DNA of 64,000 nt from an uncultured virus (IMG/VR IMGVR_UViG_3300045974_000588) (lineage: Duplodnaviria; Heunggongvirae; Uroviricota; Caudoviricetes). Both the position numbers and the translations under genes were made by a program. Under the pieces are notes generated by a model that was not told the origin of the DNA, did no database searches, and worked only from the letters and a program-made list of their open reading frames with translations. The stretch lies in IMG/VR virus record IMGVR_UViG_3300045974_000588; one strand, 5' to 3'. Shown here piece after piece: positions 11,185-61,173 of the stretch. Position 1 is the first letter of the stretch; every line of letters begins with the position of its first letter.

Positions 11185-11222
11185 CAACCCTCATGTGCCT
11201 AACCCATTTTAACAGAGGGTTG
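11185..11222 (-). promoter_or_regulatory. RBS-sequestering hairpin with a -10 box in the loop
   Basis: Perfect CAACCCTC/GAGGGTTG arms around TGTTAAAAT; the 3' arm contains the RBS. Confidence 0.65.
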
Positions 11223-11239
11223 CAAGATACATCTGATGG

Positions 11240-11617
11240 TCAGCTAACCCACGTAGCGCCTTTCCAGTCGATGATCTTAGCGAATTGTTCGGGAAGTGTG
11301 CAATTCTGGGGAGATTTAGAGAATAGTGGGGCAATCTGCTCGGCAGTAAATCCAGCTAGCCCACAACCGATTGCAGTTACCTCGAAAGTCATTTCAGGAT
11401 TCTTTTCGGCAAATTCAATAAACTGGTCTACAAAATACTTAACTCTTTCTAAAGGTAGTGTCTGGATGTTGTAGTCTTTCGTTGGAATTCCGTAGCTATT
11501 GCCTTGAAGACCTACGCCCTGACTCCAGATGGCGCCCTTTTCTTTGACAGCAAATGCTGCAGCTCCAGCGCCATGAACTCCAGCCAAATTTGAACCAAAA
11601 ACGAAGATCTTGTGCAT
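11240..11617 (-). CDS. A1S_2505-family phage protein (macro-domain-like)
   Basis: IFVFGSNLAGVHGAGAA, SYGIPTK, VTAIGCGLAG. Confidence 0.85.
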   Translation of the reverse strand: MHKIFVFGSNLAGVHGAGAAAFAVKEKGAIWSQGVGLQGNSYGIPTKDYNIQTLPLERVKYFVDQFIEFAEKNPEMTFEVTAIGCGLAGFTAEQIAPLFSKSPQNCTLPEQFAKIIDWKGATWVS

Positions 11618-11853
11618 TAGTCTACCTTCTTCTTTTCCAGTACCACAATTCCACCCTGGCTGGACGCCAGATACTTAACTCCCGTTTCAGTATCCACGAG
11701 AATGCTATACCTCGATCCATTGATAACCCACGCAGACTCACACTGGATGCGTTGAGGCACATTTGGTGGGTTGTCTACGTAGCCCAGGTGCTTGCAGCCA
11801 ACCAAGCTGATAAGAGTTAGAGCAAAGAAAAGCTTTTTCATATTAATCCTCAA
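11617..11853 (-). CDS. small lipoprotein (DUF6440-like)
   Basis: Lipobox LVGC; ILVDTETGVKYL...GGIVVL. Confidence 0.7.
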   Translation of the reverse strand: MRINMKKLFFALTLISLVGCKHLGYVDNPPNVPQRIQCESAWVINGSRYSILVDTETGVKYLASSQGGIVVLEKKKVD

Positions 11854-12478
11854 CCACTACTTCAATGTTGGAAGTCATTACGCCCTGAACTTCCAGAGCC
11901 GCTTTACGGGCTCGAATCTCTCGAAGAACGTCGTTCGATTGATTGATCTTAGCAGCATTCTGAGTCCTAGTCTCCAGAACACTAAGCTGGTAAGCATCGG
12001 CACCCTTTCTAGGTGCCCGCTTCTTCGTCTTCCATTCACCGTAGTAATAATAGGTGTTGATCGTGTCGTCCTCTTCTTCCACATGAAGTCGAATCTCATC
12101 ACCAGAAGTGAAGATGATCATGTTCTCCAGGAGAACTTTGTCCTTCGTGAGAATCATGCAACCCAAGAGCTTAATTTCTCCTTCCGGAAGAATCTGAATG
12201 AACACCTTCTGATCCATCGCTCGATTCTCGTAACAAGTTCCAGCCACCAAAGGCCGAGCCTTGAGGAGAAGAGCTTCGTGATCAGCCCAACCATGCTTCG
12301 TGTGGGTCTTAAGCCACGAGCTAGGAGTGAGCAGATGCTCTAAGAGGTAGCACTTGAGGGTGCCTTCAGGAAGTAGTGTCATTTTAGCCTCTTGCAGCTT
12401 TGATAGCCTTCGTCCATTCTCGAACGAAGTCCATGTCGGGGTCGACCGCAAAAACGCCAGGAACTGTCTCTCTGGCAA
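11843..12478 (-). CDS. hypothetical protein (true start probably MTLLPEG near 12382)
   Basis: ORF; GAGG RBS before the internal ATG. Confidence 0.6.
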   Translation of the reverse strand: MPERQFLAFLRSTPTWTSFENGRRLSKLQEAKMTLLPEGTLKCYLLEHLLTPSSWLKTHTKHGWADHEALLLKARPLVAGTCYENRAMDQKVFIQILPEGEIKLLGCMILTKDKVLLENMIIFTSGDEIRLHVEEEDDTINTYYYYGEWKTKKRAPRKGADAYQLSVLETRTQNAAKINQSNDVLREIRARKAALEVQGVMTSNIEVVVED

Positions 12479-12764
12479 ATGAGTGGAGGTCTTCCGAGTT
12501 GAAAGGAATGTTTAGCTTGTCCTTACCTTCTTCGAGGAAGAAGTCGACGAGCTCCATCGGGTCTTTAGTAGCAAAACCAAGAAGAACTTCAATAAGCAGC
12601 TTGTTTTTGAGGGCATCATTTACATCGCCATGACGATCATTAACCATCTTGATTGTGTCAGTAATAGTTTCTTTACACATCGCATCACCCATGATGATAC
12701 CACTGATCATCGAAGCCGCTGCAAGCTGCGTAAGCTGTTCGTGTGTAAGAAGAATGGACGCCAT
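12384..12764 (-). CDS. hypothetical protein
   Basis: 126-aa co-directional ORF. Confidence 0.6.
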   Translation of the reverse strand: MASILLTHEQLTQLAAASMISGIIMGDAMCKETITDTIKMVNDRHGDVNDALKNKLLIEVLLGFATKDPMELVDFFLEEGKDKLNIPFNSEDLHSFARETVPGVFAVDPDMDFVREWTKAIKAARG

Positions 12765-12915: not shown

Positions 12916-13458
12916 TCATTCAGCCACCTTCTCGAACTTGAACTCGATGTCCTGGAACTTAGTCTTGGTGCCGTTGGCCCGACTCTTCCGAGTGATTTCA
13001 TGAAATTCTTCGACCTGCTCAGGAGTCAGTGTGTCGATGAAATACCAACTGTCGTAGCGGGAATCCAAGCAATTGATGCGATTGGCGAACTCGTTAATGA
13101 TTCGTTCCACACCGTCTGAAGTCCAGCAACTGTCATGGTTGCTGTAGTGGACCCAAGGAGTGGAACCTTCGATGTAGTCGAACCCTTCCAGAAGGCCATC
13201 TCCATCATCGCCAAGCCACTCGGTTCGAATAACTGCCCAATCAAGCTTAGCCATCACTGTGATGTAGTTGCTGCCAGCACCGAAGATCAAGAGGTCCAAG
13301 TGGCGGTAGCCCTCTTCGACATCATAGTCAAGCTTCAAACTGAAACGAACTCGCATTGCGCGTTCAGGATCTGACATCTGCCAGCTCTTGTCTCCCCGCT
13401 TCTGAAACTCTTTCCTGAACTCGTTGCAGATCATGCTGGAAACAACACCGTTCATCAT
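12916..13458 (-). CDS. hypothetical protein
   Basis: ATG behind GGAGG and promoter copy 2. Confidence 0.7.
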   Translation of the reverse strand: MMNGVVSSMICNEFRKEFQKRGDKSWQMSDPERAMRVRFSLKLDYDVEEGYRHLDLLIFGAGSNYITVMAKLDWAVIRTEWLGDDGDGLLEGFDYIEGSTPWVHYSNHDSCWTSDGVERIINEFANRINCLDSRYDSWYFIDTLTPEQVEEFHEITRKSRANGTKTKFQDIEFKFEKVAE

Positions 13459-13479
13459 TGTCTCGTCCTCCAATACTAC

Positions 13480-13512
13480 AGTATACAGTATCCCTGGGAA
13501 TTATCAATAGGG
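13480..13512 (-). promoter_or_regulatory. conserved phage promoter, copy 2 (TTGATA-16-TATACT)
   Basis: CCCTATTGATAATT...TATACT. Confidence 0.8.
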
Positions 13513-13869: not shown

Positions 13870-14631
13870 TTACGCTGCGGTCGCAACCTCGCGAGCCATT
13901 TCCCAGAGCCGCTCGTTGATTCCGAGGTTCCGCTGCATGCCTCGGATGGCGGTCACGCGCCGGCCACGACCTTCCATCCCGCCACGGAGAACGTTCTCCT
14001 GGATCCGATTGAACACGGTCCAGAGGTCGTTCGGCTTGTCCTCATCCCGACGAGTCTCGAGGAGCATCTCAGGGGCGACGATCTTCTGATCCTGACCCCA
14101 CCGGATCTCACCGGCCCGAGCCGCCATCTGGAGCTGAACCTTCGCGTCGAGCTCCTTCTTGCCCATCTCGGCGACCATCTCGGCGACCTCAGGCATCTTG
14201 TTCGTAATCTGCATGCTCGCGTCGAGGATGGACTCGAGCGAACCGGCGTGACGGGCCTTGATGGCGCCGAATTCGGCGGTGCTGACGATCAAGCCGTTCT
14301 CGCAGACCAGACGGTAAATGCCCGCCCGGAACTGATAGGCCGAGGTTCGATCGTGCGAGTTCACCATCACCAGCTCGGCCAGCGAATCGCCAATCCGAAT
14401 CTCATTGGCGGGATCCGTCTTGCGGAATCGGATGATATGCTTCTGGAACCCTACGCGCTGGGGCGCCCGGGTCTTGACTTCCTTGCCCCACACTGGCGAC
14501 CAACCGAGGTCGTTGAGGGCACTCACCACCTGAGTGGTGGGAATGAACAAGTACTTCTCACTGGTCCCCGAACCAGCATGCTCGGCCAGGGCCGACTTGG
14601 GGAGTTCGAGCAACGCGGTCTCGTTGGTCAT
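13870..14631 (-). CDS. DUF932/DUF945 family protein
   Basis: SEKYLFIPT, KHIIRFR, NSHDRTSAYQFRAGIYRLVCENG, DLWTVFNRIQEN; start reassigned to the ATG behind GGAGG. Confidence 0.9.
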   Translation of the reverse strand: MTNETALLELPKSALAEHAGSGTSEKYLFIPTTQVVSALNDLGWSPVWGKEVKTRAPQRVGFQKHIIRFRKTDPANEIRIGDSLAELVMVNSHDRTSAYQFRAGIYRLVCENGLIVSTAEFGAIKARHAGSLESILDASMQITNKMPEVAEMVAEMGKKELDAKVQLQMAARAGEIRWGQDQKIVAPEMLLETRRDEDKPNDLWTVFNRIQENVLRGGMEGRGRRVTAIRGMQRNLGINERLWEMAREVATAA

Positions 14632-14651
14632 CTTCTTGCCTCCATAACACA

Positions 14652-14679
14652 AGGATACGGAGTTATAGAAAATTATCAA
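14652..14679 (-). promoter_or_regulatory. conserved phage promoter, copy 3 (TTGATA-16-TATCCT)
   Basis: TTGATAATT...TATCCT upstream of the DUF932 gene. Confidence 0.7.
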
Positions 14680-15189: not shown

Positions 15190-16124
15190 GAAACCAATTT
15201 CCTCACTTGCTGAAGGCTGTAAGTAAGCGCTCTGAGAACTGTCAGCCTGAACTGTAGCCGTTCTGCTGCATTCCCCTTGAATTTGATCGGGAAATTACTC
15301 TTAACTCTGTTGGAATTTACTTGAAGCTTGACATCGAAGTTCGCATGCTCAAGATTGATGATCGCAGAAAGCTGAACGATGTTGGCACCCGCCGAAATTA
15401 AGTTATCACATTCTTCTTCACCGTCAAGACCATCACCTCGGAAAGTGATTTTGCGCTCATCACACTCCAAACTTACTAGTTTTCCATCAGCAGTCAACGA
15501 AACTGGGGATGAAGTTTGCTCAGGAGCGTCTTTAGGTAGATCAATTTCTTTTACAACGTTATCTCGAACCTTCTTCATAGCTTCAGGAGTTGGAATGTAG
15601 GGATTACTGAAAGCGCGAATTCCAATCGTTCCTAGTTGAGAAGAAATCCAATCGAAACTTCCTTCGCAGTACAGAGCCTTCTGATCTAGATCCAAAGCCA
15701 TGCTGTAGAACCTAGGAACTGCTGGAATACTTGGAAGGAGCTTTTCACGAATCCGATCTTTCAAATCTCGCTTATCTGTGCTAGAAAGAATCGTTCCTTG
15801 AGGGAGAGCCCGTAGAGACTGAACATATTCAGCATTGAGGAGAGCCTTTGGAACGCTTTTACGATCAACTCGAACTCCAAAGGCAATCCACTTGTCTGAA
15901 AGAATTGTAGAATCCTCTTGAGGCGGCATGTTGTTGTCAAGAACGTCACAAGTTCCAAAAACTTGCTCATCTTGCGGTCCGCCTGGGCGGAAAGCCAGTG
16001 ATTCCAGCTTCTCGAAAATAGCATCTTTATCAAAAGTGCCTGTTACTTCGAAAACCTGAAGTCCAAAGTTGCCCTTCAATAAGCCCATAAGTGGCCTCCC
16101 ACTTTTGTAACCTTCAAATTTCAA
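15186..16124 (-). CDS. rdgC: RdgC-like recombination-associated protein
   Basis: LAFRP; FGVRVDRKSVPKALL...DLKDRIREKLLP matches the RdgC pattern; divergent. Confidence 0.65.
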   Translation of the reverse strand: MKFEGYKSGRPLMGLLKGNFGLQVFEVTGTFDKDAIFEKLESLAFRPGGPQDEQVFGTCDVLDNNMPPQEDSTILSDKWIAFGVRVDRKSVPKALLNAEYVQSLRALPQGTILSSTDKRDLKDRIREKLLPSIPAVPRFYSMALDLDQKALYCEGSFDWISSQLGTIGIRAFSNPYIPTPEAMKKVRDNVVKEIDLPKDAPEQTSSPVSLTADGKLVSLECDERKITFRGDGLDGEEECDNLISAGANIVQLSAIINLEHANFDVKLQVNSNRVKSNFPIKFKGNAAERLQFRLTVLRALTYSLQQVRKLVS

Positions 16125-16157
16125 GGATCCGGTTACAATAGTAGGTGAGGGATTAGT

Positions 16158-17573
16158 ATGAGCCTTTTCGAAGTCTTCATTGATGCGAATGCCAAACCAA
16201 CCATCGAAGGGTACAATGCGTTAAGCAAAGGAATCCTTCCCAAAGGTATTTACACTGGTGGCGAGATCACACAGGGTCCGGGTCGCTCTGTAAATGTAGC
16301 GGAATTTACGGCTAAATCTCCAGACGGGTTCACGGTCATTGGTCATACTCAGAATTTGACGATTGTAAGTCCTCAAGCAGGTGATTGGGCAATCGTCCTT
16401 TATTCAAGAGCTTGGAAACCTGGAGATGCAGTTAAGCAACACACAGTAGAATTTCGGATTTTACCTTGGGTAACTCAAAGTGTTAATCAGCCGGGGTATA
16501 GCGATTTAGTACACCCTGATCCAGATAGAGATAACTATATTCTTTTTGCGAGAGTGACATCTAGAGCAGTTGCTACCAGCGTTCGGATTGAGCCAAACGA
16601 TATAGACAGCTCGTTTGCTGAGAGAATTCAGATCAATCAACCATCCACTCAAGTTCTTTCTGGAACTGAAAATTTCAATGGTCCTGCTGGCGTTTCAATC
16701 TACCACAACTTAGGACACACCAATTATAGAGTTCAAATTACGCCTTCGCAGCAGCCCAACTTTGGAATTGGTGATATTTGGACAGAGAAATTCCCAACAC
16801 ACTTCGTAGCTAAGTGCAGTGGCGAAGTTACTACCACTCTTGATTGGACTTTGTTCGTAAACTTGAATAAGTTTGGCCTTACACCTCAACAAGTGTATGG
16901 AAGCCGTTATGGTCATGGCCTTATTTCCAGTGCCAATAGCTCAATCATTAGAAATTCAGAAGATTCTCATAATTACTTCACATTTGCAGTAACGGTTGGA
17001 AGTATAGTGAAGCCTTTTGTAGGTTGTCAGAATGACTTCAACCAAGTTACTCTAAGCACGTTAGAAGCGACAAATACTCCAGTAGCTTGGGAAATGGTTT
17101 CTGCAAATGTGGTTAAGAATCTCTTAATTGTTCCAGATGTAACAATACAAAGCAATTCAGCCCAAGTTGTTTTAGATTATGCTGGTCGTGCAGCAAGCGT
17201 TAAAGCGTTCATTATTCCTAAACTAGCATCTAGTTTGGTAAATCCAATCGTAACTTTAACGAACAACGCTGCAGGAAAGCTTGTAGCGCATATTTACGCT
17301 CAAGCAGCTCCGGGAACTTTGTTCACTTTGGTTGTCTTCTTAAATCCTGGAGCTTATGCTAACGGGTCTGTAACAAACTGCACAACATCTTACGAAGTGG
17401 TTCATAACTTAGACTTCAATGCCTATGTTCCAATCATTTCACTAAGAAACATACCTTCTGGAACGGTAACAGGTATGTCAGTAGAAATCAAGCTCAATTC
17501 ATTCAAAGTACATTTTACAGCTGGGGCAGTTGTTAGCTTTGATTGGATTATCGTTCCTGCATTTGTGGAGTAG
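16158..17573 (+). CDS. probable virion structural protein (tail or baseplate associated)
   Basis: Beta-rich, repeated xxHNL...FxV...DW modules typical of phage tail proteins. Confidence 0.55.
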   Translation: MSLFEVFIDANAKPTIEGYNALSKGILPKGIYTGGEITQGPGRSVNVAEFTAKSPDGFTVIGHTQNLTIVSPQAGDWAIVLYSRAWKPGDAVKQHTVEFRILPWVTQSVNQPGYSDLVHPDPDRDNYILFARVTSRAVATSVRIEPNDIDSSFAERIQINQPSTQVLSGTENFNGPAGVSIYHNLGHTNYRVQITPSQQPNFGIGDIWTEKFPTHFVAKCSGEVTTTLDWTLFVNLNKFGLTPQQVYGSRYGHGLISSANSSIIRNSEDSHNYFTFAVTVGSIVKPFVGCQNDFNQVTLSTLEATNTPVAWEMVSANVVKNLLIVPDVTIQSNSAQVVLDYAGRAASVKAFIIPKLASSLVNPIVTLTNNAAGKLVAHIYAQAAPGTLFTLVVFLNPGAYANGSVTNCTTSYEVVHNLDFNAYVPIISLRNIPSGTVTGMSVEIKLNSFKVHFTAGAVVSFDWIIVPAFVE

Positions 17574-22163: not shown

Positions 22164-22201
22164 ACTTTTCTCCAACGTCATTTAAACTATGTTAGAGGAG
22201 T
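22164..22201 (+). promoter_or_regulatory. RBS-sequestering hairpin with -10-like TAAACT in the loop (sheath gene)
   Basis: ACTTTTCT/AGAGGAGT and AACGT/ATGTT pair with G-U wobbles. Confidence 0.5.
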
Positions 22202-27403: not shown

Positions 27404-27451
27404 AAATGTCGAAATGTTCTTCCTACAATAAAATGTAGATGGAGGTGTTAA

Positions 27452-33095: not shown

Positions 33096-33200
33096 TGAAC
33101 TGGAATTCCTGCCCCACACTACCGTTGTAGCCCTTTGCTGACTTCCACTTAAACCCTTGACCTATGGAAACTTCGGTTATACTGATAGGGTGGAGGAGCT

Positions 33201-39631: not shown

Positions 39632-40293
39632 TGATGTTTAAGAAGTTCTTGAGGTTTGTCACTAGATCGTTATTCTCCAAAGTTGCTGCTAAACAAATTG
39701 CAGAACTTGAAGCTGAAATTGATGACCTAAACTTTAGGCTTTTACAGCATGAAAATCACGCTGCACATTTAAGCCAGCACTTAATTAACGCTGTTCAAGT
39801 GGATCCGATAACTGGTCTTAGGAACAGAAAATACTTCATGGAAATTGAAGCTCCAGTATTTCGTAAGGCCAAGAATTTTAAAGCTACGAACGATACGATT
39901 TTCTATATGATTAGCCTAGATTACTTTCCAATCTTGCTTCAAGACTATGATGCTTGTGTTGGCGAGAATCTCCTTAGGCAGTTCGCTGAGATTTTAAAAA
40001 CGTGCATTCGTGGTTCAGATGTTTTGATAAAATACGATAACGAAGAATTTCTAATCTTAGCAAAAAGAACTAGTAGAGCCTTCGCACCTATTCTAGCTGA
40101 TAGAGTACTACAACTCACTAGAGAGACTGCTTTTAGTGTTTCTGAAACAGTGTCTATTCAGTGCACTTGCTCCATTGGATACGCGTCGTTTTCAGCTAGC
40201 GAATCGAAAGATCGATTAGAGGCAACCATTGCTTTTGCTCTAAACATGCTATTCGAAGCTAAGCAAAAAGGTCGTAATTGTTGGGTAGGCTAA
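39628..40293 (+). CDS. degenerate GGDEF-domain protein
   Basis: DPITGLRNRKYF, GENLLRQFA, IRGSDVLIKYDNEEFL, TCSIG, AKQKGRN. Confidence 0.85.
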   Translation: MMMFKKFLRFVTRSLFSKVAAKQIAELEAEIDDLNFRLLQHENHAAHLSQHLINAVQVDPITGLRNRKYFMEIEAPVFRKAKNFKATNDTIFYMISLDYFPILLQDYDACVGENLLRQFAEILKTCIRGSDVLIKYDNEEFLILAKRTSRAFAPILADRVLQLTRETAFSVSETVSIQCTCSIGYASFSASESKDRLEATIAFALNMLFEAKQKGRNCWVG

Positions 40294-40333
40294 AACTCAT
40301 CAATACGCTGGTTAACTAATTGAGGTGAGTTTT
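40292..40333 (+). promoter_or_regulatory. RBS/start-sequestering hairpin upstream of the exonuclease
   Basis: AAAACTCA/TGAGTTTT (8 bp) plus TCAAT/ATTGA (5 bp) covering GAGGTGAG and most of the TTG start. Confidence 0.65.
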
Positions 40334-41312
40334 GGCTATTCCACTATTTGCTATTGAGCGTGTAACGCTAATCGACACTTCTTGGCTGGTCTATCGGTCT
40401 TTCTGGTCTCCACAAGCCGAAAGCATTTCTAAGTTCACAGGAATTCCAGCAGCAGGCCCTCTGGTGATGTTCTACCAGAGTGTATCCAAGGTGTACAGGG
40501 ACTTCACTAATCCAATCTTTGTGTTGGATAGTTTTCCAATCGATAAGGTAGAGCTGTTTCCCGAATACAAAGGAAACCGCCAAGCAGCTAGAGAGGCTGA
40601 TCCGGACGCGGCAGTAAAGAGTGAAACTCGAAAGAGTCTTCGGAATAGCTTGGTTCAGACCTTGCCAACAGTTGTATCAGTTATTCAAGATCAAGAAGCA
40701 GATGATACGATCGCGTCTATTGCAGTTCAGTTGAAAGCTAAGGGCGTGGATGTTCACATTCTTAGCTCAGATAGAGATTTGTGGCAGCTCCATCAGCAAG
40801 GAATTAAGCTTTGGGTTCCTGGAGACTCTGGCTACAAAGATGTTACAGATATGATGGTTGAAGAAAGCTTTGGAACTCCTGCTATTAAGATTCCGCTCTG
40901 CAAAGCTTGGCTTGGTGACAAATCAGATAACATTCCTAAAATTCCTCGCTTATCTTCTAAGCTAGTCCGAAACATCATCAACCAGAGTGAGACTTTGGAA
41001 GACACGATCAATCTAGTGCACATGCTTCCACCTAGCGAGAAGTGGAAGAAGCCAATGATAGAATTCATTCCGCAAGCTCAGATTAACTACCAGATTGTCA
41101 AGATTCGAACCCAATTAGTTCCTCGGTTTGCCTATTTCCGCTTAGATTCGAAGTACCTTCAAGACATCCTTGATGCTTTCATGGTTCGCAACTTTAACGC
41201 TTATGAGTTATATCAAGCGATGGTTCCAGCACAAGATGCAACTGTTCATTTACTGCATCGCCACGGTATGTTGAATAACAATCTAGCCTGGGAAGAAGTT
41301 TACAAAAACTAG
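40332..41312 (+). CDS. 5'-3' exonuclease / flap endonuclease (Pol I N-terminal or T4 RNase H-like)
   Basis: LIDTSWLVYRSF, YKGNR, EADDTIA, SSDRDLWQL, GDKSDNIP. Confidence 0.92.
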   Translation: MAIPLFAIERVTLIDTSWLVYRSFWSPQAESISKFTGIPAAGPLVMFYQSVSKVYRDFTNPIFVLDSFPIDKVELFPEYKGNRQAAREADPDAAVKSETRKSLRNSLVQTLPTVVSVIQDQEADDTIASIAVQLKAKGVDVHILSSDRDLWQLHQQGIKLWVPGDSGYKDVTDMMVEESFGTPAIKIPLCKAWLGDKSDNIPKIPRLSSKLVRNIINQSETLEDTINLVHMLPPSEKWKKPMIEFIPQAQINYQIVKIRTQLVPRFAYFRLDSKYLQDILDAFMVRNFNAYELYQAMVPAQDATVHLLHRHGMLNNNLAWEEVYKN

Positions 41313-41399: not shown

Positions 41400-41442
41400 A
41401 GTTGTTAAACCTCCCAATAAAATTGGTGTAGGAGGTACAACT
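41400..41442 (+). promoter_or_regulatory. RBS-sequestering hairpin with TAAAAT at the apex
   Basis: AGTTGT/ACAACT, ACCTCC/GGAGGT and CAAT/ATTG pairings. Confidence 0.7.
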
Positions 41443-41443
41443 T

Positions 41444-43749: not shown

Positions 43750-43778
43750 TTTACCTTCTTTCTGTTTCTTAACAATAC

Positions 43779-43811
43779 ATTATACTGTTAGCCAAGAAAT
43801 TATCAATAGGG
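43779..43811 (-). promoter_or_regulatory. conserved phage promoter, copy 4 (TTGATA-16-TATAAT)
   Basis: CCCTATTGATAATTTC...TATAAT. Confidence 0.85.
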
Positions 43812-45602: not shown

Positions 45603-46119
45603 CTACTTCTGATTCTTGGGCTTCGAGCTGAGGCTCACGGTCCGGACAACACCTTCCGGGTTGCTCTCGTGGGCCTGAATGTCAGGCACCCAGGTCTGAG
45701 CCAACCGCACCACCGCCTTGGGGCACCGATAGGTCAGGTTCAAGGGGAGCTCGATGCTGCCGAGAGCGCTCTTGATCTGGTCCATGGAGTCGTTGTCCGC
45801 ACCAGTGAAGCCGTAAATGGCCTGATTGGGGTCGCCAACCACCACCATGCGACCTCCAGGCCGAGTTCCCAGCGCTGTGGAGGGTAGAGGCCTTGGCGGT
45901 GCTACCAGCAGCAGCCAACTTGGCAACGATCTCGCCCGCGATCGACTTATTGAACGCACCCAGGAAAACTTGCTGACTGGAGTGGTTCTCGCCAATCCAA
46001 CGAACGAGCGCGAGGAGCGTGAAAGTCTTCCCGCAACCAGCGCGAGCCACGAGGTTCAAGGAGCCCTTACCGCTCTCCGCCCAGTCGATCACTGCTTGCT
46101 GTTGCGTGCTAAGTGCCAT
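45603..46119 (-). pseudogene. UvrD/Rep helicase N-terminal part with internal deletion and frameshift
   Basis: ARAGCGKT, AFNKSIA, STLHS in one frame; VVGDPNQAIYGFTGA and TYRCPKAVV in another; Walker B absent. Confidence 0.85.
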
Positions 46120-46193
46120 GATTATTTCCTCCAACATTACAATATACGGTTGGCCAGGAAATTATCAATAGGGATTACAAAGTTTTTCAAATT
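46114..46193 (-). repeat. 80-bp promoter+RBS+ATG cassette, copy A; contains promoter copy 6 (TTGATA-16-TATATT, 46141-46168)
   Basis: 75/80 identical to 50572-50651 by manual alignment. Confidence 0.9.
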
Positions 46194-48335: not shown

Positions 48336-48374
48336 AGTTTGAAATCTCAGGTTATAATCTAAGTGAGGTAAACT
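48336..48374 (+). promoter_or_regulatory. RBS-sequestering hairpin with TATAAT in the loop
   Basis: AGTTT/AAACT and ATCTCA/TGAGGT flank GGTTATAAT. Confidence 0.55.
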
Positions 48375-48893: not shown

Positions 48894-48894
48894 C

Positions 48895-50334: not shown

Positions 50335-50577
50335 TTAGCGCATGCTCACTTCGAAGGGGCGGTAGTTGCCGGGGAGGCCGATGCTGGTCAGGTGCTTGCA
50401 GTGCTTGTGCCGAATCCAGCCCGGGCAGCTGCAACCCCAGAACTTGCTGGTCTTGTGCTGGGCGACCGTGTAGACTCGGTTCGAAGAGCTGCTCTTGATC
50501 TCGAAGCGGTTCGTCCACTGACCGTTGTCAGGAAGTGCGACTGAACCTTGAGGACGGGTGACGATTGCGTTTGCCAT
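50335..50577 (-). CDS. small SWIM zinc-finger protein
   Basis: WGCSCPGWIRHKHCKHL. Confidence 0.8.
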   Translation of the reverse strand: MANAIVTRPQGSVALPDNGQWTNRFEIKSSSSNRVYTVAQHKTSKFWGCSCPGWIRHKHCKHLTSIGLPGNYRPFEVSMR

Positions 50578-50651
50578 GATTATTTCCTCCAACATTACAA
50601 TATAAGGTTGGCCCAGAAATTATCAATAGGGTTTTCAAAGTTTTTCAAATT
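50572..50651 (-). repeat. 80-bp promoter+RBS+ATG cassette, copy B; contains promoter copy 8 (TTGATA-16-TATATT, 50599-50626)
   Basis: 75/80 identical to 46114-46193. Confidence 0.9.
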
Positions 50652-52227: not shown

Positions 52228-52571
52228 TACTTAGCCTCCAAAGTGGGAAGAGCTGCGATGTGAACCGTAATCCCCATATCCTTGCCACAAAAGAAATCCC
52301 ACTCAATTAAAGCCCAACCAGCTGGGAGTTTGAATTTCGCAGAACTATCACCAGCTTCTGCGTCCAGGAAGATGGATCGAGTAGCTTCTCCAGTTTCCAT
52401 GTTGAGAAGCGCGTATTGGTGAAAAGTGCCACCCTCACAAAAATTATTCAAGAAGCAAGATTCTTGAACTACGCCACGAAACTTACGACCTGTGTAGTCA
52501 GGAAACACACTGGACTTAATGACCTTTCGCAGAGCGGGAATGACTTCGAAATCTCCCATTTTCTGTCCCAT
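52227..52571 (-). CDS. hypothetical protein (MGQKMGDF...)
   Basis: ATG 7 nt behind GGAGG, downstream of promoter copy 9. Confidence 0.7.
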   Translation of the reverse strand: MGQKMGDFEVIPALRKVIKSSVFPDYTGRKFRGVVQESCFLNNFCEGGTFHQYALLNMETGEATRSIFLDAEAGDSSAKFKLPAGWALIEWDFFCGKDMGITVHIAALPTLEAK

Positions 52572-52576
52572 AACAT

Positions 52577-52626
52577 TTCCTCCACAATACCAATTTAGGT
52601 ATTGTGGAGGAATTATCAAGAGGGGT
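52577..52626 (-). promoter_or_regulatory. promoter copy 9 (TTGATA-16-TAAATT) embedded in a perfect 15-bp inverted repeat
   Basis: TTCCTCCACAATACC-TAAATT-GGTATTGTGGAGGAA on the minus strand. Confidence 0.85.
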
Positions 52627-53194: not shown

Positions 53195-53812
53195 CTAAGG
53201 TTGGCGCTGAGAGGGTCGCCTCTCGAAAGTTGTGGGTTTTACTGCTGGTTTGTATTTGAGAGCGTTATACGCTTTCTCAAAGGTGAAAACGTAGACTCCA
53301 AGGTTCCGAGCCTTGTTAAGCTTGGCCTTGAATGATGTTGATTTTTCGTTGAAGTAGTATGAATTTGGTTGCATGTAACTCATTTCTGATAAGTATGATT
53401 CTAATTGCCTCCAGTAGAAATCTTGCAGAACCATTCTGTCCAACTGAACTAAGCAGAATGTGATGCCATCTTCATGTTCTAAACGCCGAACAGAAACTCC
53501 CGGAATATCTGAAAGGTATGAAGAAACTTCAATTTCACTATCGTTTTCTTGTTTATCCTTGAAACTGCCGAAGAACGTATTCTTTTGCGATGTACTTCGA
53601 GTTTCCGTTTGAGTGGAATCCACCGTTACAAAAATTCGAGAAGATAAATCTTGAAGTGCTCGAAGCTTCGCTTTTTCAGCGGCTATTGGATCCTTCCCCT
53701 TCACCATCCCAACACCATAATAATAGGCGGGGTTGTTTTGTGGTGGAGTGGAAACCCAGGCTGGAAACATCATCGCACCCAAATCTTTGCGCCGGTTACG
53801 CGCTTTTTGCAT
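53195..53812 (-). CDS. LPP20-like domain protein
   Basis: PAWV, YYYGVG, AKLRALQDLSSRIFVTVDS. Confidence 0.65.
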   Translation of the reverse strand: MQKARNRRKDLGAMMFPAWVSTPPQNNPAYYYGVGMVKGKDPIAAEKAKLRALQDLSSRIFVTVDSTQTETRSTSQKNTFFGSFKDKQENDSEIEVSSYLSDIPGVSVRRLEHEDGITFCLVQLDRMVLQDFYWRQLESYLSEMSYMQPNSYYFNEKSTSFKAKLNKARNLGVYVFTFEKAYNALKYKPAVKPTTFERRPSQRQP

Positions 53813-53943
53813 TCAGGGCAATCAAAACCTACTGTATCTTCTTCTCTTTCATTGGTTCCGGCTTCCAGGACGGTTAGAGTAGCAAGCAAGAGCTCTTCAC
53901 CACACTTGTGGCAAGTTACAAAAGCTGCCTTCTTGATTGCCAT
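53770..53943 (-). CDS. small zinc-ribbon protein
   Basis: CHKC...CPEC; ATG behind GGAGG and promoter copy 10. Confidence 0.65.
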   Translation of the reverse strand: MAIKKAAFVTCHKCGEELLLATLTVLEAGTNEREEDTVGFDCPECKKRVTGAKIWVR

Positions 53944-53961
53944 CCTGGCCTCCATAAACAC

Positions 53962-53995
53962 AGTATAAGTACGGGGTGAGAATTATCAATAGGGG
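53962..53995 (-). promoter_or_regulatory. conserved phage promoter, copy 10 (TTGATA-16-TATACT)
   Basis: CCCCTATTGATAATTC...TATACT. Confidence 0.85.
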
Positions 53996-54126
53996 ATTAG
54001 AAGTTTTTCATATTTATTTTGCTGCCAATTTCCCAAATTTCGGTGTTATAGATACAGGTCGTATTCAAGCAGTTTGATTCGGCATCGAGTCAAATGTTTT
54101 TAGGTTACCAATCTTGGAGGAAGTAA

Positions 54127-55347: not shown

Positions 55348-55350
55348 ACA

Positions 55351-55722
55351 ATGGCCGAAGAAGTCGTTAATTGTCAGTTTTGCGATAGTGAAGAAACTGG
55401 TCAGGGTTTTGGAACCCCTTATGGAATCTGCGCTAGTTGCGCTTGTCCAAAGTGTCGGGGGTTCCAATTCTTTGACGATAGAGGATTCCTCTTAACTGGC
55501 CAGCCATTCTTTTCCAAGACTCCTTGCCCAGAGTGCAATGGTTCTGGTCAAAAACCTGTAATTGTACCCACTCAGAAAACAAGAGAAGTTTCTATTCCTT
55601 TTGCTGAAAATGGGAAGACTTTTTCGATTTCAAACAACGAAACCAGAAATCAGCTACCCGTTAAGATAACGTTTACGCTCAGGCCAAATCAATCAGTGGA
55701 TTTGAACTTTCGGAGTTCCTAG
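55351..55722 (+). CDS. cysteine-rich zinc-finger protein
   Basis: CQFC, CASCACPKCRG, CPECNGSG. Confidence 0.65.
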   Translation: MAEEVVNCQFCDSEETGQGFGTPYGICASCACPKCRGFQFFDDRGFLLTGQPFFSKTPCPECNGSGQKPVIVPTQKTREVSIPFAENGKTFSISNNETRNQLPVKITFTLRPNQSVDLNFRSS

Positions 55723-56162
55723 TGGCCATATCTCCTGAAGAGCTTAAACGAATGAGAGCCTGCTCACCACTACTTCCTCCTCCTGGAGACGATGTAGTGG
55801 TGAAACTCTTAGATGAAATCGAGAGACTTAATAAAATCGTAGACGAAAAACCCAAAGAAGGCTTCTCTAGGATAGCAACTTAGTCAGACTCTAGTTATGG
55901 GTTAGACTTGTTGTGGGGAGGGCCAATGGGATCTGTTCGTGATAAGTTAAAAGGCGAACTTGGTTGGCTGGGCAAGAAAGCCCGTAGTCGCATGTTAAGA
56001 ATTCTAAAAGGTCTGATTAATCGTCAAGAACGGCGTAGAGCTAAACAGAATCCGGAGTGTCAGCTCACGTATCGCCGTAAAATTGGTTACGCAGATTAAC
56101 TATCGCACCGTGAATCCCTACAATTTTCAGTAATTTGTTAAAATTAGGTAGTGGAGTGAAAG

Positions 56163-57854
56163 ATGCGAAATCTAAGTATTGCAGGTTTAGAAACTGAAGC
56201 ATCGATTCGGAACCGAAATTTCGTCAAAGACGCGTATTTCGGATCGGGCCCCGGTGGAGCTTGGCAGCTCAATGGGGGCGTAGTACCTGTAGGAGTGGTA
56301 CAGCTACTTAATACTGATGCCACACTCTATACTTCATCATTCCCCTATTCTCTTACTCTACCGTTGCTTGCAGCTGGAGGGAAACCTCCCTACTCGTGGT
56401 CAATCTTACCTTATACACCACTAGCAGGAAAAACAGTTGTTCCTTCTGGTAGTATTAGTGGTAATACTCTTTTTGGAACTTATTCAGCAGCAGCCAGTTC
56501 TCAGGTAATGGTTCAAGTTACGGATTCTTTGGGAAATACAGCTTCTAAAGTTTTAAATGTAAACTTGCTGTATACAGCTACAACACCCCCGCCCACTACA
56601 GCAACAACTACGCCTCTTCCTACAACTACTGCTACTTATTCTACAACGACACTAGCTACGACGACAACACCAGCTACTACAACTGTTACCACTCAAACAA
56701 ATACCACACCAACTGTTACCACTCAAACAAATACCACACCAACGGTAACTACTGCTCAAACAAATACCACTCCTTCACCAACAACGACAACTACAACCAC
56801 GTTAACTACCACGCCTCCACCAACCACACAGGCTCAGACGGTAGAAATCTTAACACCTACGCTAAATCAATCGTTTGCACCATATAGTGGAATTCAAGTA
56901 GATACTCACGTTGCTGGAGTAGGTACGAATAATGTTCAAGTAACGATTTCTGGTTCAGGGGGAACCACTCCTGCTCAGTTAGTTTCAGGAACAGTTTACG
57001 ATGGTGTTTGGAGAACTAGTGTTGGAAGTGGAGTTTCAGGAACTAATTTAATTCATGTTGTAGCTTACGATACTTATAGTAATGTTTTAGGTCAAGCTTC
57101 AGTAAACGTAAACATTCTGGCGGCTACAAATACAACACCGTCACCAACCACTACACTAACAACAACCACACTAACAACCACTACAACACCACCGCCGTCA
57201 GTTACTGCCTTCTCTACCTACTGGAATGCTGCTACAAGTAGCATAGATGTATTTGTCACTGCCACAGCTCAAATGAGAATCAACGTACAGCTAGTAATGC
57301 AGAGTGGTAGAGAAGACGGATTTAATGCACTCACGGGCGGATCACCTTTCGGATCATTTGTAATTAGCGAAAGAAATGAACAAGCAAACGTCCTCTTATA
57401 CGATCAGTTCAATAACTACCTCGGCTACCAGATGTTTGTGGACATACCTGGGAATCCTACTACGACAGCAACAGCAACTACACCTCCCCCAACAACCACA
57501 GTAACGACTACAGTAACTACAACACCTCCTCCAACAACCACTGCGGCTCCCGTAAATTATACGCTTACCGTAACGGGAAACATGGCTGCAGTCGGCCTTG
57601 GTGGAACTCCAGAAATTGGTACTTATGTATATCCCGCAGGAACAGTAGTAGATTACTCTTATTCAGCTTCAGGAATATTTGATGAAGTAGCAGCCAGTAT
57701 AGATGGCAATGTTGATCAACAGGGTGTAGATGTGATGGGAACAGTTACAATGGATGGAAACCACACTCTTAACGCTCGGGGCGTTAAAACAGGTCATCCT
57801 ACAGCTCAAACATTGTTTGCTCCCAATCCTTTCCCAGCTACGAGTATAGGCTAA
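56163..57854 (+). CDS. Ig-like domain protein with Thr/Pro-rich linkers, probable virion surface protein
   Basis: AGGKPPYSWS...VTDSLG Ig-like module; three poly-Thr tracts; C-terminal VTMDGNHTLNA repeat-like domain. Confidence 0.7.
   Translation: MRNLSIAGLETEASIRNRNFVKDAYFGSGPGGAWQLNGGVVPVGVVQLLNTDATLYTSSFPYSLTLPLLAAGGKPPYSWSILPYTPLAGKTVVPSGSISGNTLFGTYSAAASSQVMVQVTDSLGNTASKVLNVNLLYTATTPPPTTATTTPLPTTTATYSTTTLATTTTPATTTVTTQTNTTPTVTTQTNTTPTVTTAQTNTTPSPTTTTTTTLTTTPPPTTQAQTVEILTPTLNQSFAPYSGIQVDTHVAGVGTNNVQVTISGSGGTTPAQLVSGTVYDGVWRTSVGSGVSGTNLIHVVAYDTYSNVLGQASVNVNILAATNTTPSPTTTLTTTTLTTTTTPPPSVTAFSTYWNAATSSIDVFVTATAQMRINVQLVMQSGREDGFNALTGGSPFGSFVISERNEQANVLLYDQFNNYLGYQMFVDIPGNPTTTATATTPPPTTTVTTTVTTTPPPTTTAAPVNYTLTVTGNMAAVGLGGTPEIGTYVYPAGTVVDYSYSASGIFDEVAASIDGNVDQQGVDVMGTVTMDGNHTLNARGVKTGHPTAQTLFAPNPFPATSIG
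56681..56740 (+). repeat. perfect 30-bp tandem duplication (TVTTQTNTTP x2)
   Basis: AACTGTTACCACTCAAACAAATACCACACC twice in tandem. Confidence 0.9.
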
Positions 57855-57857
57855 CAG

Positions 57858-58364
57858 ATGGAAGCTAGAATTAAGTTTAGTCCAGTAAGTGTTAGTTGGT
57901 CGAATCCAAGCTCTGGAGATACTCTGGATTTTGCAAAAGATGGGAATCCTACGCTTATCGCAATGAAAGATGTAAAGCCTGGAGATAAAATAAGATTTAC
58001 CACGCTTGGTCAAACAAATGGTGAATTTAGAGGAATTATTCGGTATCTGGGCAAGTTTAAACCCTTACAAGCCTCACAACCTCTGAGCATTTTAACAGTA
58101 GATTCCGCATACTTGGGAGTCAGATATCCTTACCAAGTCGCTGTTGGCTTACAGGGTTCTGGAGGAGTAGTTCCTTACACTTGGTCAATTGAACCTTGGA
58201 CTCCTGAGCTAGGAAAGCGCCCTCTTACAAATCCTCAGATTGTAGGAGACAGTTTAATTGGCGAGTTAACTAGCGCTACAATTAATCAAGTACGAATTAA
58301 GATGACTGATGCTTTTGGATTCTACGTTGAAAAGATAATCAATCTTAACTCGACTTCGGCTTAG
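57858..58364 (+). CDS. Ig-like domain protein, paralogous to the N-terminal domain of 56163..57854
   Basis: GSGGVVPYTWSIEPWTPELGK versus AAGGKPPYSWSILPYTPLAGK. Confidence 0.7.
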   Translation: MEARIKFSPVSVSWSNPSSGDTLDFAKDGNPTLIAMKDVKPGDKIRFTTLGQTNGEFRGIIRYLGKFKPLQASQPLSILTVDSAYLGVRYPYQVAVGLQGSGGVVPYTWSIEPWTPELGKRPLTNPQIVGDSLIGELTSATINQVRIKMTDAFGFYVEKIINLNSTSA

Positions 58365-58734
58365 TGAGCTCTGCTGCTAACTTGCCATCAAGGATTGTGA
58401 AATCTTTCAATAGCATCGTTTGAAGTGTATCATTCCAAAGTACTTGGAATCGCTTTAGTTCGAACTCAAGCTGGTTCTTTTGAGCGTCTAGATCTAGTAT
58501 GTAACGACTATGCTCAAGAACATGCTTTGGATCTAAAATCCCATTTTCACGCATTATAGATTCTTCAAGATTAGCGTGAGCTCTAAGCATTTTTAGAATT
58601 AGATCCATGTATCGGATAATGCTGCGATCTTCAGATCGGTTGTTAACTAGCTTAGTAGTTTCCTCAAATAACGATAAAATCTCTCTATGGTCTCTGTCAA
58701 TCTCGTCTATTCCGAGGGGATCGTAATCTATCAC
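58345..58734 (-). CDS. hemerythrin-like protein
   Basis: GIDEIDRDHREIL, HANLEESIM, HVLEH; the final His ligand is not evident. Confidence 0.75.
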   Translation of the reverse strand: MIDYDPLGIDEIDRDHREILSLFEETTKLVNNRSEDRSIIRYMDLILKMLRAHANLEESIMRENGILDPKHVLEHSRYILDLDAQKNQLEFELKRFQVLWNDTLQTMLLKDFTILDGKLAAELTKPKSS

Positions 58735-58745
58735 CGTATCTCCCT

Positions 58746-58777
58746 AAAAAGAACCCTCCCAGGCAACTGGGAGGGTT
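58746..58777 (-). terminator. intrinsic terminator after the second tail fibre gene
   Basis: AACCCTCCCAG/CTGGGAGGGTT stem with a following T tract on the minus strand. Confidence 0.8.
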
Positions 58778-58804
58778 TTCTAACCAGCAGAAACTAAGCT
58801 AGGA

Positions 58805-60391
58805 TTAGATAGCCATCCAAGCTGTACCACTGTAAACCAATGTCCAGGCCTGCCACTGAGCGGTAAGCGTGATGCTTGCTACGCCGTCAATGTTCTTGCC
58901 ATTTCCACTAACTGTAACTGCATTGGCCGTGGAATCCACTTTCTTGAATGTGAAGCTCTGACCAGTAACAGGAGCTGCGGGAAGGGTGAACGCGAAGGGT
59001 GCTGTGGTAGCATCGCCCAAGAGTACGTTGTCTGTTCCCAAGACACTGTAGGCGCCGGTCTTGGTGGAAATTGCAACGATATCCTGAGCAGTCTGAGCCA
59101 TCACGAAGGCTGTGGTCGCAACCTGAGTGGTGTTCGTGTTCACCGCTGCTGTAGGAGCAGTGGGAGTGCCGGTCAAGGCAGGTGACGCGAGGGGAGCTGC
59201 ACCACTTACATCTGCTACTGCCAGAGCCAACAGAGTCTTGACCTGAGCCACTGTGAGGTCTGCTGCGTTTGCAGCTGAACCTGTGTTATTGCCCTTGATG
59301 GTGTTTGCTGCCATCTGAGCCAACACCGCGTTTGTCACGGAGTTGTTAACGTAGGCGGCTGTCAGGGTCGTTGTACCGCTACCGGAAAGGACGCCAGCCA
59401 ACGTAATAGTTTGGTTAGCGGTCAGGTAAGCCTGAGCCTTAACGAAAGCTGTGGTTGCAACTGAAGTGCTGTTATCTGCTGTTGCAACGGTAGGAGCAGT
59501 AGGAGTTCCTGTCAGAGCAGGAGAAGCCAAAGGAGCTGCTCCACTTACATCTGCCACTGCCAAGGTAACTGCGCCAATGCGACCAGCAACTGAAACCACA
59601 TCTGAAGCGCCACCCTGTACCTGATCCCAGGTCGTGCCATCGAACACGATCAAGTCGCCAACGGTCCAATTTGCGTTACCGTCGATTGAAGTCGTGCCCG
59701 CTGCTGATACCTTGTAGTAGTAACCCTTGGTTCCTGTACCGGCTACCAAAGTTGGGGTGTTTGTTGAAGCGTTCCAAGTGCCCTGATACTGAAGGGCGCC
59801 AACGATTGCTGCAGGCAGCTGACTGTTGGGAACCTTGCCACCTGAATCCAAGGTCGCAACGCCATTTGCTGCGCCAAGGGCTGAAGTATTAACTGCGTCT
59901 GTGATGCCGTAGCCAGCGAGGGTTGTGGGCTTGCCAGTCACGCTGCTGAATGCAGGCGTAATGGTTACCGCTGATCCTGTTGCCGTAATACGACCTTTTG
60001 CGTCCACTGTGAAAGGAGTCACTGTGGTGGCGGCGTTGTTGTAAGTACCGGCGGTAACACCACTTGCGGCCAAGGTCACAGCGATTGTCGTACCACCTGA
60101 ACCAGTCGCATCACCCGACAGGGTCACGGTCTGGTTGGCGGTCAGGTAAGCTGTTGTGCTAGCAGCGGTAACACGACCCTTTCCATCAACTGTGAAAGTG
60201 TTGTAGCCAGAACCAGCAGTTACTGCTGTGTTGGCCAACACCATCGCGCCCTGGGTACCAGAAACATCACCCGCAAAGGTCTGAGCCTTTACGAACGCTG
60301 TTGTCGCAAGTGTTGTTGAGTTGTCCGCCGTGGCTGGGGTCGGCGCTGTCGGTACGCCAGTAAAGCCAGGACTATTTAAAAGATGGGACAT
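58805..60391 (-). CDS. tail fibre protein
   Basis: APLASPALTGTPTAPT, VDAKGRITA, KPTTLAGYGITDA, YQGTWNASTNTP, VVSVAGRIGAVTL fibre motifs. Confidence 0.88.
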   Translation of the reverse strand: MSHLLNSPGFTGVPTAPTPATADNSTTLATTAFVKAQTFAGDVSGTQGAMVLANTAVTAGSGYNTFTVDGKGRVTAASTTAYLTANQTVTLSGDATGSGGTTIAVTLAASGVTAGTYNNAATTVTPFTVDAKGRITATGSAVTITPAFSSVTGKPTTLAGYGITDAVNTSALGAANGVATLDSGGKVPNSQLPAAIVGALQYQGTWNASTNTPTLVAGTGTKGYYYKVSAAGTTSIDGNANWTVGDLIVFDGTTWDQVQGGASDVVSVAGRIGAVTLAVADVSGAAPLASPALTGTPTAPTVATADNSTSVATTAFVKAQAYLTANQTITLAGVLSGSGTTTLTAAYVNNSVTNAVLAQMAANTIKGNNTGSAANAADLTVAQVKTLLALAVADVSGAAPLASPALTGTPTAPTAAVNTNTTQVATTAFVMAQTAQDIVAISTKTGAYSVLGTDNVLLGDATTAPFAFTLPAAPVTGQSFTFKKVDSTANAVTVSGNGKNIDGVASITLTAQWQAWTLVYSGTAWMAI

Positions 60392-60410
60392 TTAGCTCCT
60401 CCTCAGGAAG

Positions 60411-61139
60411 TTAGAAGATGTACCAGTTGTTTGCAGTGAAAATTAAACTGACCGCGTTTGGTGCAGCTAATTCGTATTGAGAACCCATTTCTACAGTGTT
60501 TGTTCCAGCAGGCTTGATTAGCACTAGGCCCGGGCCCATGTTTCGGATTCTATAAACGACGTTTTCCTCACCAACAGGCATATGAATGTCAGCAGGATTT
60601 GGAGAATTTACGATTACAACACTTTGGTTGCCAGTTAAGACCGTAGTGGAGTTTACCACTTCTACTTGTTGCCTTGTGCCTCCTGTAATGAAAATGCTTG
60701 GTGCTACAATTGTTCCAGTGAAAATTGGATTAGCCGTATCAGCTGGTACAAAACCCAGTGCAGATACGATATCAACTGATTCAATTGTAGCACTGTTGAT
60801 TGCTATGATGCTCCAGCCATCAACTTTGTTACACTTTAAGCAAACAGCTTCATAAGGCTTGTCAAGAAGAAGCTCAGTTTTACCTGCGATCTTATCAGTT
60901 CCGTGGGGTCGAACTGTCACTGTAACACTAGAAGAAAATAGGCCATGATCGTCTACTAACCACACGATTTCATCGCCATCCGTAACTACTGAAGCTGCTG
61001 GCAAATTAGCGTAACGGTTGCTAGTAGCAGATTCCCAAACTACCAGAACATCCTGAGAACGGACATTGTAATCTGTGTCATTTACAGAAGTTCTGTTAAG
61101 TTGAAGTCCAAAAACCTCGGTAGGGCTAAGAATCTTCAT
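60411..61139 (-). CDS. tail-fibre-associated structural protein
   Basis: Two copies of a beta module (NLPAAS...DGWSII; HMPVGE...NNWYIF) similar to the C-terminus of the adjacent fibre. Confidence 0.6.
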   Translation of the reverse strand: MKILSPTEVFGLQLNRTSVNDTDYNVRSQDVLVVWESATSNRYANLPAASVVTDGDEIVWLVDDHGLFSSSVTVTVRPHGTDKIAGKTELLLDKPYEAVCLKCNKVDGWSIIAINSATIESVDIVSALGFVPADTANPIFTGTIVAPSIFITGGTRQQVEVVNSTTVLTGNQSVVIVNSPNPADIHMPVGEENVVYRIRNMGPGLVLIKPAGTNTVEMGSQYELAAPNAVSLIFTANNWYIF

Positions 61140-61173
61140 AGGGCTCCATCCACATCTAATTGTATATGGAAAA

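Follow-up and report, generated by a model that had tools for sequence, protein, structure and literature searches.

Can a hairpin that contains a promoter decide which transcripts of a gene are translated, and how many genes of one phage are controlled in this way? The question is raised by 64,000 nucleotides of an uncultured virus (IMG/VR record IMGVR_UViG_3300045974_000588; this whole stretch is called the window below), for which a preliminary description picked out ten gene starts where sequence upstream of a −10-like box is complementary to the downstream Shine-Dalgarno (SD) and start region. It took these hairpins for a general design in which each gene is translated only from its own promoter. 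We find that the hairpins are real and selected, that they are a feature of the mRNA, and that they occur at a minority of promoters (roughly a quarter of those in the window and a tenth of those in its relatives, both fractions being lower bounds). Fold-back control of translation of the type described in phage T4, acting at this minority, is the probable explanation.

Promoter classes and the proposed switch

We curated 98 gene starts in the window, 32 of them promoter-bearing. Transcription starts were assumed from consensus (a predicted own transcript begins ∼6–7 nt after the −10), and early and non-early timing classes were inferred from motifs. The early class consists of repeated sigma-70 cassettes, with ten copies in the window (−35 positions 6580, 13507, 14679, 43806, 45410, 46168, 48312, 50626, 52619 and 53989) and five in a close relative, G002. 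Their layout is TTGATA, 16 nt, TAnnnT, an SD usually ∼8 nt on and then a small minus-strand open reading frame (ORF). In all 15 copies the spacing is 16 nt, and many have an overlapping register of 18 nt; pattern scans for the cassette found G002 as the sole further genome with several copies. Several early cassettes also show a second promoter-like match just upstream. About 20 other window starts have a −10-like box only, either GGTTA.. (often at replication genes) or TAnAAT (often at structural genes); nine of the ten sites in the preliminary description are of this kind and one (52571) is an early cassette.

In the proposed mechanism, a promoter's own upstream sequence would pair with the stretch from just past the −10 through the SD, often reaching the AUG. 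The 5′ arm would be the −35/−10 spacer in early cassettes and the 10–20 nt before the box in −10-only promoters. A transcript entering from upstream would hold both arms, burying the SD, whereas one starting ∼6–7 nt past the −10 would lack the 5′ arm and leave the SD open. The −10 has to retain its own sequence and sits between the arms, which places it in the loop. The results below show the complementarity, its excess over controls, the mRNA-strand bias and, for one relative, the kinds of target gene; that the promoters are active, where transcription starts, that it reads through and that translation responds is what we infer.

Hairpins exceed chance at a minority of promoters

All ten hairpins of the preliminary description lie just 5′ of real start codons, and in isolated folds each had a TAnnnT-like box in or at the loop (−5.1 to −25.9 kcal/mol), but only some exceed chance. 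Three controls were used: dinucleotide shuffles of the part 5′ of the −10 (60 per site, scored for SD occlusion); per-site swaps, in which the 5′ leaders of other promoters were substituted (60 swaps, scored as SD-to-AUG opening energy); and class swaps, in which 5′ halves were exchanged among genes of one class, preserving composition and consensus. Shuffling, which had been proposed along with the ten sites, gave p≤0.05 at 52571 (z 5.0), 40332 (3.1) and 11183 (2.6), with the other seven at z −0.9 to +1.3. Leader swaps ranked the sites as 52571 (p<0.02), 11183 (0.02), 40332 and 22207 (both 0.05), 41444 and 56163 (both 0.08), 33201 (0.18), 48375 (0.40), 27452 (0.52) and 61139 (0.93).

Applied to the whole window, leader swaps were beaten at the 95% level by 9 of 32 promoter starts (p = 2e-5) and not by the other 23. 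The nine comprise four of the ten sites noted earlier and five of the 22 unpicked starts (p = 0.004 for the unpicked set), namely the early cassettes 6535, 14631, 46119 and 50577 and the divergent-pair gene 16088. Across tests, eight sites are robust (52571, 11183, 40332, 6535, 14631, 46119, 50577 and 16088), three are borderline (41444, 56163 and 22207) and four are at chance level (27452, 33201, 48375 and 61139). The early cassettes are the clearest group: five of ten have the hairpin, and four of these five had been missed by the preliminary description. At strong sites, predicted SD opening costs 8–19 kcal/mol on the long transcript vs 0–2.4 on the own transcript. The robust and borderline sites are as follows (opening energies are given as long vs own transcript).

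52571..52619 (−): strongest hairpin, an early cassette; −35 TTGATA at 52619-52614, −10 TAAATT at 52597-52592 as the loop; 5′ arm is the 16-nt spacer (52618-52598), 3′ arm 52591-52571 with the SD and start of a 114-amino-acid (aa) ORF; 20 pairs, mean pair probability 0.98, −29.4 kcal/mol; opening 18.6 vs 0.0 kcal/mol.
11183..11224 (−): non-early hairpin; 5′ arm 11224-11212, −10 TAAAAT at 11211-11206, 3′ arm 11196-11183 with the SD; precedes a 123-aa ORF (phrog_16722) that is co-directional with and downstream of the early cassette at 13507; opening 12.0 vs 4.3 kcal/mol.
40291..40334 (+): hairpin before a 5′-3′ exonuclease gene (PF02739; site 40332); arms 40291-40301 and 40324-40334, GGTTAACT box in the loop.
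46119..46168 (−): early cassette hairpin before a truncated UvrD-like helicase N-terminal ORF; arms 46167-46145 and 46139-46119, −10 TATATT at 46146-46141; z 4.3; opening 11.9 vs 0.5 kcal/mol; swap p 0.03.
50577..50626 (−): early cassette hairpin before an 80-aa ORF; arms 50625-50603 and 50597-50577; z 3.5; opening 9.1 vs 0.6 kcal/mol; swap p 0.03.
6534..6580 (−): early cassette hairpin before an 89-aa ORF (6535); arms 6577-6557 and 6551-6534; z 3.2; opening 11.5 vs 0.7 kcal/mol; swap p 0.02.
14630..14679 (−): early cassette hairpin before a DUF932 gene (14631); arms 14673-14656 and 14646-14630; z 3.9; opening 8.3 vs 2.4 kcal/mol; swap p 0.05.
16086..16160 (both strands): 69-nt gap between the divergent genes 16088 (−) and 16158 (+), with two back-to-back GGTTACAA promoters and SDs; the gap is one inverted repeat predicted to hide each SD upon read-through (16088 p 0.03; 16158 joining p 0.03).
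41400..41443 (+): moderate hairpin before a papain-like protease gene (PF00112; 41444), with an HNH endonuclease gene next; −10 TAAAAT at 41418-41423; z 0.07.
56115..56155 (+): borderline hairpin before a 563-aa ORF (56163); −10 TAAAAT at 56139-56144; swap joining p 0.05, opening p 0.08; z 1.25.
22164..22201 (+): weak hairpin (−6.3 kcal/mol) before a 988-aa structural gene (22207) with a divergent upstream neighbour; p 0.05 only on the SD-to-AUG footprint, SD opening 2.4 kcal/mol, z −0.5; fails the shuffle and class-swap tests.

The excess was confined to promoter starts. The comparison with operon-internal genes, also proposed at the outset, showed no excess at internal starts (n = 53; permutation p 0.45–0.77). 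Under shuffling, p≤0.05 was reached by 5 of 11 starts in the early class, 3 of 20 in the non-early class, 3 of 53 inside operons and 2 of 14 of other kinds. In class swaps, permutation p was 0.0005–0.003 for the early class (n = 10) and 0.00015–0.02 for the non-early class (n = 20); the non-early signal stems from the nine sites picked in the preliminary description (p = 0.0002). A strong stem relative to spacer shuffles was present in 5 of 10 window cassettes and 1 of 5 G002 cassettes. We also set a fixed criterion, which called for a joining energy of −8 kcal/mol or lower and an SD opening of at least 6 kcal/mol under a mechanical promoter rule, and whose thresholds were chosen after the distributions had been inspected; rows without a recognisable SD were dropped (10 promoter, 16 internal and 14 other intergenic). 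By this criterion 8 of 32 window promoter starts pass, and 41444 meets it (joining −11, SD opening 6).

Could the pairing be a by-product of pyrimidine-rich spacers lying beside purine-rich SDs, of duplicated cassettes and of back-to-back promoters, with no selection on pairing? Such an origin accounts for four of the ten noted sites, for the eleven unpicked non-early starts, which show no excess (p = 0.24), for the flat medians reported below and for much of the 16088/16158 repeat; moreover, the cassettes are not independent because they are paralogues. Against it, native pairs win in the early class although swaps keep composition and the common consensus, and some stems are perfect over 15–16 bp. 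The G-U/A-C asymmetry and the replication in three distant genomes, both described below, also speak against it. Taken together, the swap controls, perfect stems, asymmetry and replication refute chance as the source of the strong tail of hairpins, and we consider the by-product explanation improbable.

The pairing acts in mRNA

A strand-symmetric stem search separated RNA-level from DNA-level pairing. Stems were found at 48 of 220 native promoter starts, with 21 sense-strand G.T and 2 A.C pairs, and in 97 of 772 chimeric controls, with 22 G.T and 21 A.C (difference p = 0.001); the G.T:A.C ratio was 7:0 at internal starts and 12:8 at other intergenic starts. Because G-U is tolerated and A-C is not, we conclude that the stems act in mRNA. 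The −10 boxes lie in or at the loops, and the predicted own transcripts are open.

This asymmetry bears on a role in DNA, in which the inverted repeats, once extruded as cruciforms or hairpins, would present the −10 (as in phage N4), or in which they would bind a dimeric regulator. The central position of the −10 in the loop, the like folding of both DNA strands under DNA parameters and a conserved palindrome over the −35 in early promoters of one relative (G001) suit such a role. A strand-asymmetric 21 to 2 does not, and arm sequence and register vary between sites while the stem is missing at most promoters of each class. We therefore regard a DNA-level role as very unlikely.

Replication in relatives

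The window comes from an uncultured jumbo phage whose helicase is ∼25% identical to those of Lu11/RSL1/Yoloswag-type phages, the nearest cultured ones. Two of its structural genes have matches, among named phages, only in Rctr197k, and a search of 50,697 phage records found no near nucleotide match to the window. We compared it with G002 (37 kb, 67–93% nucleotide identity to the window), G001 (105 kb), G003 (307 kb, 98% complete), G004 (262 kb) and an Ewingella contig (G008:C38, 253 kb), taking G001, G003 and G008 as the independent relatives for replication. Genes in these genomes came from a simple gene caller, 78 of whose 84 window starts agree with the curated list. Rctr197k (63% GC) had only 4 promoter-class starts and was therefore uninformative.

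Under the fixed criterion, 25 of 210 promoter starts carried an SD-hiding hairpin (12.5 expected), as did 5 of 332 internal starts (11.6 expected) and 17 of 263 other intergenic starts (9.2 expected). Restricting the comparison to the three independent relatives left 16 of 161 promoter starts against 3 of 276 internal ones (Fisher p = 2e-5). Medians were unshifted in five genomes under the strict promoter rule (Wilcoxon p 0.38–0.89), so the effect is a tail of strong hairpins and not a property of all promoters. The claim that each gene is translated only from its own promoter finds no support in 8 of 32 starts in the window, 16 of 161 in relatives and a typical promoter that is unshifted. At early promoters in particular, 0 of 14 in G001, G003 and G008 vs 5 of 10 in the window had the SD hairpin (p = 0.006).

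In G003, among 133 intergenic starts of genes for 90–450 aa, a hairpin preceded 3 of 5 endonuclease genes vs 12 of 128 others (p = 0.010, post hoc), and within the promoter class 3 of 3 endonuclease genes vs 4 of 57 others. The three guarded endonucleases are two LAGLIDADG homing endonucleases and an endonuclease VII; hairpins also occur at Hoc-like, head-decoration and tail-fibre genes of G003 and at a YafO-like gene of G008. In the window the targets are the 5′-3′ exonuclease, the papain-like protease, the DUF932 protein, the helicase fragment and ORFans. A late gene guarded while early transcription passes through it, with timing inferred from motifs, fits 11183 and the endonuclease and virion-protein genes of G003, and does not fit the five early cassettes.

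Individual hairpins were retained to different degrees. At the 52571 cassette G002 keeps a block of 19.3 kcal/mol, with one A-U changed to G-U and the outer stem extended, while a 33-aa remnant replaces the ORF behind it (the single such case). Homologues of gene 16158 have SD-hiding hairpins of unrelated sequence in G001 and G003, and two homologues in G008 have none. A fixed structure imposed on the 15 cassettes paired 68.5% of positions vs 61.8% in shuffles (reached by 2 of 500).

Several results weigh against fold-back control. The timing rationale of the T4 late genes is inapplicable to early cassettes, and the early-class swap signal falls to p = 0.075 once 52571 and 50577 are removed. 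G004 shows no excess (1 of 29). Read-through should matter where transcripts arrive from upstream, and hairpins were indeed more frequent with a co-directional upstream gene (24 of 176) than with a divergent one (1 of 33), and behind an early promoter (9 of 57) than without one (10 of 119), but these differences, although in the expected direction, reached only p = 0.14 and p = 0.19; a co-directional neighbour was present at 24 of 25 promoter-class hairpins (p = 0.14 for enrichment), and upstream terminators had no effect (5 of 35 vs 19 of 141). The hairpin is lost or weakened in the G002 orthologues of 40332 and 50577, the latter with an SD opening of 3.8 kcal/mol and a protein 97.5% identical. 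RNAalifold returned no consensus structure for the 15 cassettes, and the covariation that had been suggested as a check did not appear in them (score 0.30 vs 0.29 in a slid control). Finally, at 43749 the stem leaves the SD uncovered. Weighed with the G-U bias, the promoter-only excess, the G003 targets and the predicted difference between long and short transcripts, T4-type control remains the reading we favour for a subset of genes, and not as a general arrangement.

Comparison with T4, PeSL cassettes and insertion sequences

Hairpins that sequester the ribosome-binding site are described for T4 e, soc, 49 and I-TevI in the parts of PMC3014915 available to us, and I-TevII/III, segB, 26 and Aeh1 mobE are among further cases in those of PMC2988022; in both sources these portions describe the device for late genes alone. 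The preliminary description had contrasted a few late genes in T4 with general use in this phage. We ran the same pipeline on T4, adding late and early boxes, and 13 of 78 promoter starts scored (3.3% expected) vs 2 of 96 internal starts, which does not differ from 8 of 32 in the window (p = 0.42). The premise of general use beyond T4 thus fails, T4 and the window being no different on this score. The T4 matches include I-TevI, I-TevII, regB, denV and the divergent pair 26/51. T4 e, soc and 49 escape the pipeline, owing to its promoter assignment and its 30-nt window, so all hairpin fractions given here, in every genome, are lower bounds.

This comparison served as a blind test, in which the early promoters of T4 proved to have such hairpins about as often: 7 of its 20 early-like promoters scored, and 4 of the 19 late-like ones. 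The early-type promoters of T4 within SD-hiding hairpins are at NC_000866 positions 8161, 15232, 53885, 62740, 65355, 123032, 130253 and 166749, including those of regB, denV and mrh.2. In the sections of a review of T4 prereplicative transcription that were accessible (PMC2988021), there is no passage on early-promoter hairpins.

Judged by sequence features, the hairpins would belong to the T4 kind, with the promoter inside the hairpin, the SD in the 3′ arm and an own transcript predicted to lack the 5′ arm. Endonuclease and virion-protein genes are targets in both, the G003 genes matching I-TevI/II, 49 and soc, and the pairs 26/51 of T4 and 16088/16158 of the window are each divergent genes on one common inverted repeat. 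In contrast to T4, the window phage belongs to an unrelated jumbo lineage, its non-early boxes are GGTTA.. or TAnAAT and not TATAAATA, and half of the window cases are early sigma-70 cassettes. That the same kinds of genes are guarded in an unrelated lineage points to convergence, and a device of T4-like phages is thereby extended to an uncultured jumbo lineage.

The early cassettes also resemble the PeSL cassettes of RB49/phi1, PST and nt-1 (PMC2839356; PMC4122927, both in part). As described in the available text of these papers, PeSLs are repeats of an A/T-rich region, −35, −10, SD and ATG before small ORFans in variable regions, with a stem-loop over the −10 and a cassette that persists as the ORF changes. 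The window cassettes fall within this description as repeated sigma-70 promoter, SD and ATG units before small variable ORFs. PeSL stems, however, are G/C tracts read and tested as terminators, whereas the window stems pair the spacer with the SD and lack a U-tract; in addition, spacing in the window and G002 is a constant 16 nt, and only about half of the copies have a strong stem.

An explanation by PeSL-type attenuation or processing would treat the stems (the longest ∼20 bp) as terminators, pause sites or RNase III substrates that act on upstream transcripts and so insulate the cassettes in RNA, with SD hiding secondary. PeSL stem-loops commonly overlap the −10, and one reduced lacZ expression like rrnB T1, according to the accessible portions of PMC2839356, where the insulation of shuffled cassettes is already published, as termination. 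The ten window early cassettes are PeSL-like, one persists while its ORF changes, and at 43749 the stem persists with the SD outside it. On the other hand, no U-tract follows the 3′ arms of the stems, a terminator scan of 40001-60000 called none of the hairpin sites there terminator-like, and the stems extend into the SD and AUG. Most stems are probably also too short and bulged for RNase III. Attenuation as the primary function thus appears unlikely to us; it is compatible with fold-back control, since Rho could also end untranslated read-through RNA.

Fold-back inhibition is also the principle by which IS10 and IS50 shield a gene from translation on transcripts from outside promoters, with one transposase gene per element. 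We conclude that the window shows neither a new mechanism nor a genome-wide design, but most likely the device of T4 e, 49 and I-TevI together with PeSL-like cassettes in an unrelated lineage. The literature searched, which covered few subscription papers and main texts without supplements, contained no report of a hairpin design in jumbo phages or genome-wide, and stems that cover the SD may appear in PeSL alignments given as figures or supplements. It is a tentative idea, which we hold possible though not likely, that promoter cassettes able to silence themselves form a widespread and convergent layer of phage control that has mostly gone unrecognised, and that PeSL "terminator" insulation is largely translational. 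In this reading a third to half of the early cassettes in the window lineage, as in T4 by the same test, would pair their own −35/spacer with the SD and start region, and the protein output of a mobile cassette would be set by its own promoter alone, wherever it lands. The 52571 cassette (∼50 nt, with a predicted difference of 18 kcal/mol) is a compact candidate for an insulator part.

Remaining sites and other observations

Five early cassettes and the four chance-level sites complete the inventory of cassettes and noted hairpins.

43754..43810 (−): early cassette of gene 43749; stem kept with the SD outside it; joining −10, SD opening 1–2 kcal/mol.
13456..13507 (−): early cassette with no significant SD-hiding hairpin; likewise the cassettes with −35 at 45410, 48312 and 53989 (in these four, 0.35–0.87 of spacer shuffles are as strong).
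27418..27445 (+): noted site before a 170-aa tail gene (27452); chance level.
33142..33196 (+): noted site (33201); 9-bp long-range stem, z 0.4, not above controls.
48336..48374 (+): noted site (48375); chance level, divergent upstream neighbour.
61145..61170 (−): noted site (61139); chance level, strong terminator-like hairpin directly before it.

At 27452 no switch is predicted, as SD opening costs 7.7 kcal/mol on the own transcript and 7.8 on the long one. Read-through is doubtful at 61139 because of the terminator-like hairpin directly upstream, and at 22207 and 48375 because the upstream neighbour is divergent. The names "sheath" and "tube" given earlier to 22207 and 27452 found no backing in PHROG, Pfam or PDB matches or in a predicted fold (pLDDT 45), while one homologue of the "tube" protein is titled "Phage tail protein" in UniRef. 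Atlas searches assigned no function to ORFs 52571 and 11183, and one DNA sequencing run, probably of the source sample, contained no informative variants. A Sigma70_r2 match was found in G004 and G007 and none in G001–G003, of which G001 and G002 are fragments.

A UvrD/Dda-like helicase is split over two ORFs at 44739-46119 (−), each with its own early cassette; the N-terminal ORF has 145 aa in the window and 334 aa in G002. At 33683-35829 (+) a weak radical-SAM match stands with a GTP cyclohydrolase gene, which presumably indicates 7-deazaguanine DNA modification. In G001, early promoters (for example G001:C1:1035-1065, 4086-4116 and 100973-101003) have palindromes over the −35 and spacer, with TTGACA, its inverted copy 5–6 nt on and then TATATT, which may be operator-like or bidirectional; the stem position is unlike that of the window cassettes. 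Early genes of G003 (for example G003:C1:506, 87373, 183208 and 218481) have a common start motif of SD, AAATCC and ATG that is echoed upstream of the promoter and is a possible repressor or nuclease site. Members of the family also occur as 246–253 kb contigs (L101/G008:C38) in assemblies of Ewingella americana, Yersinia ruckeri and/or Salmonella enterica, and such contigs in bacterial assemblies may be phage-plasmids, a carrier state or contamination.

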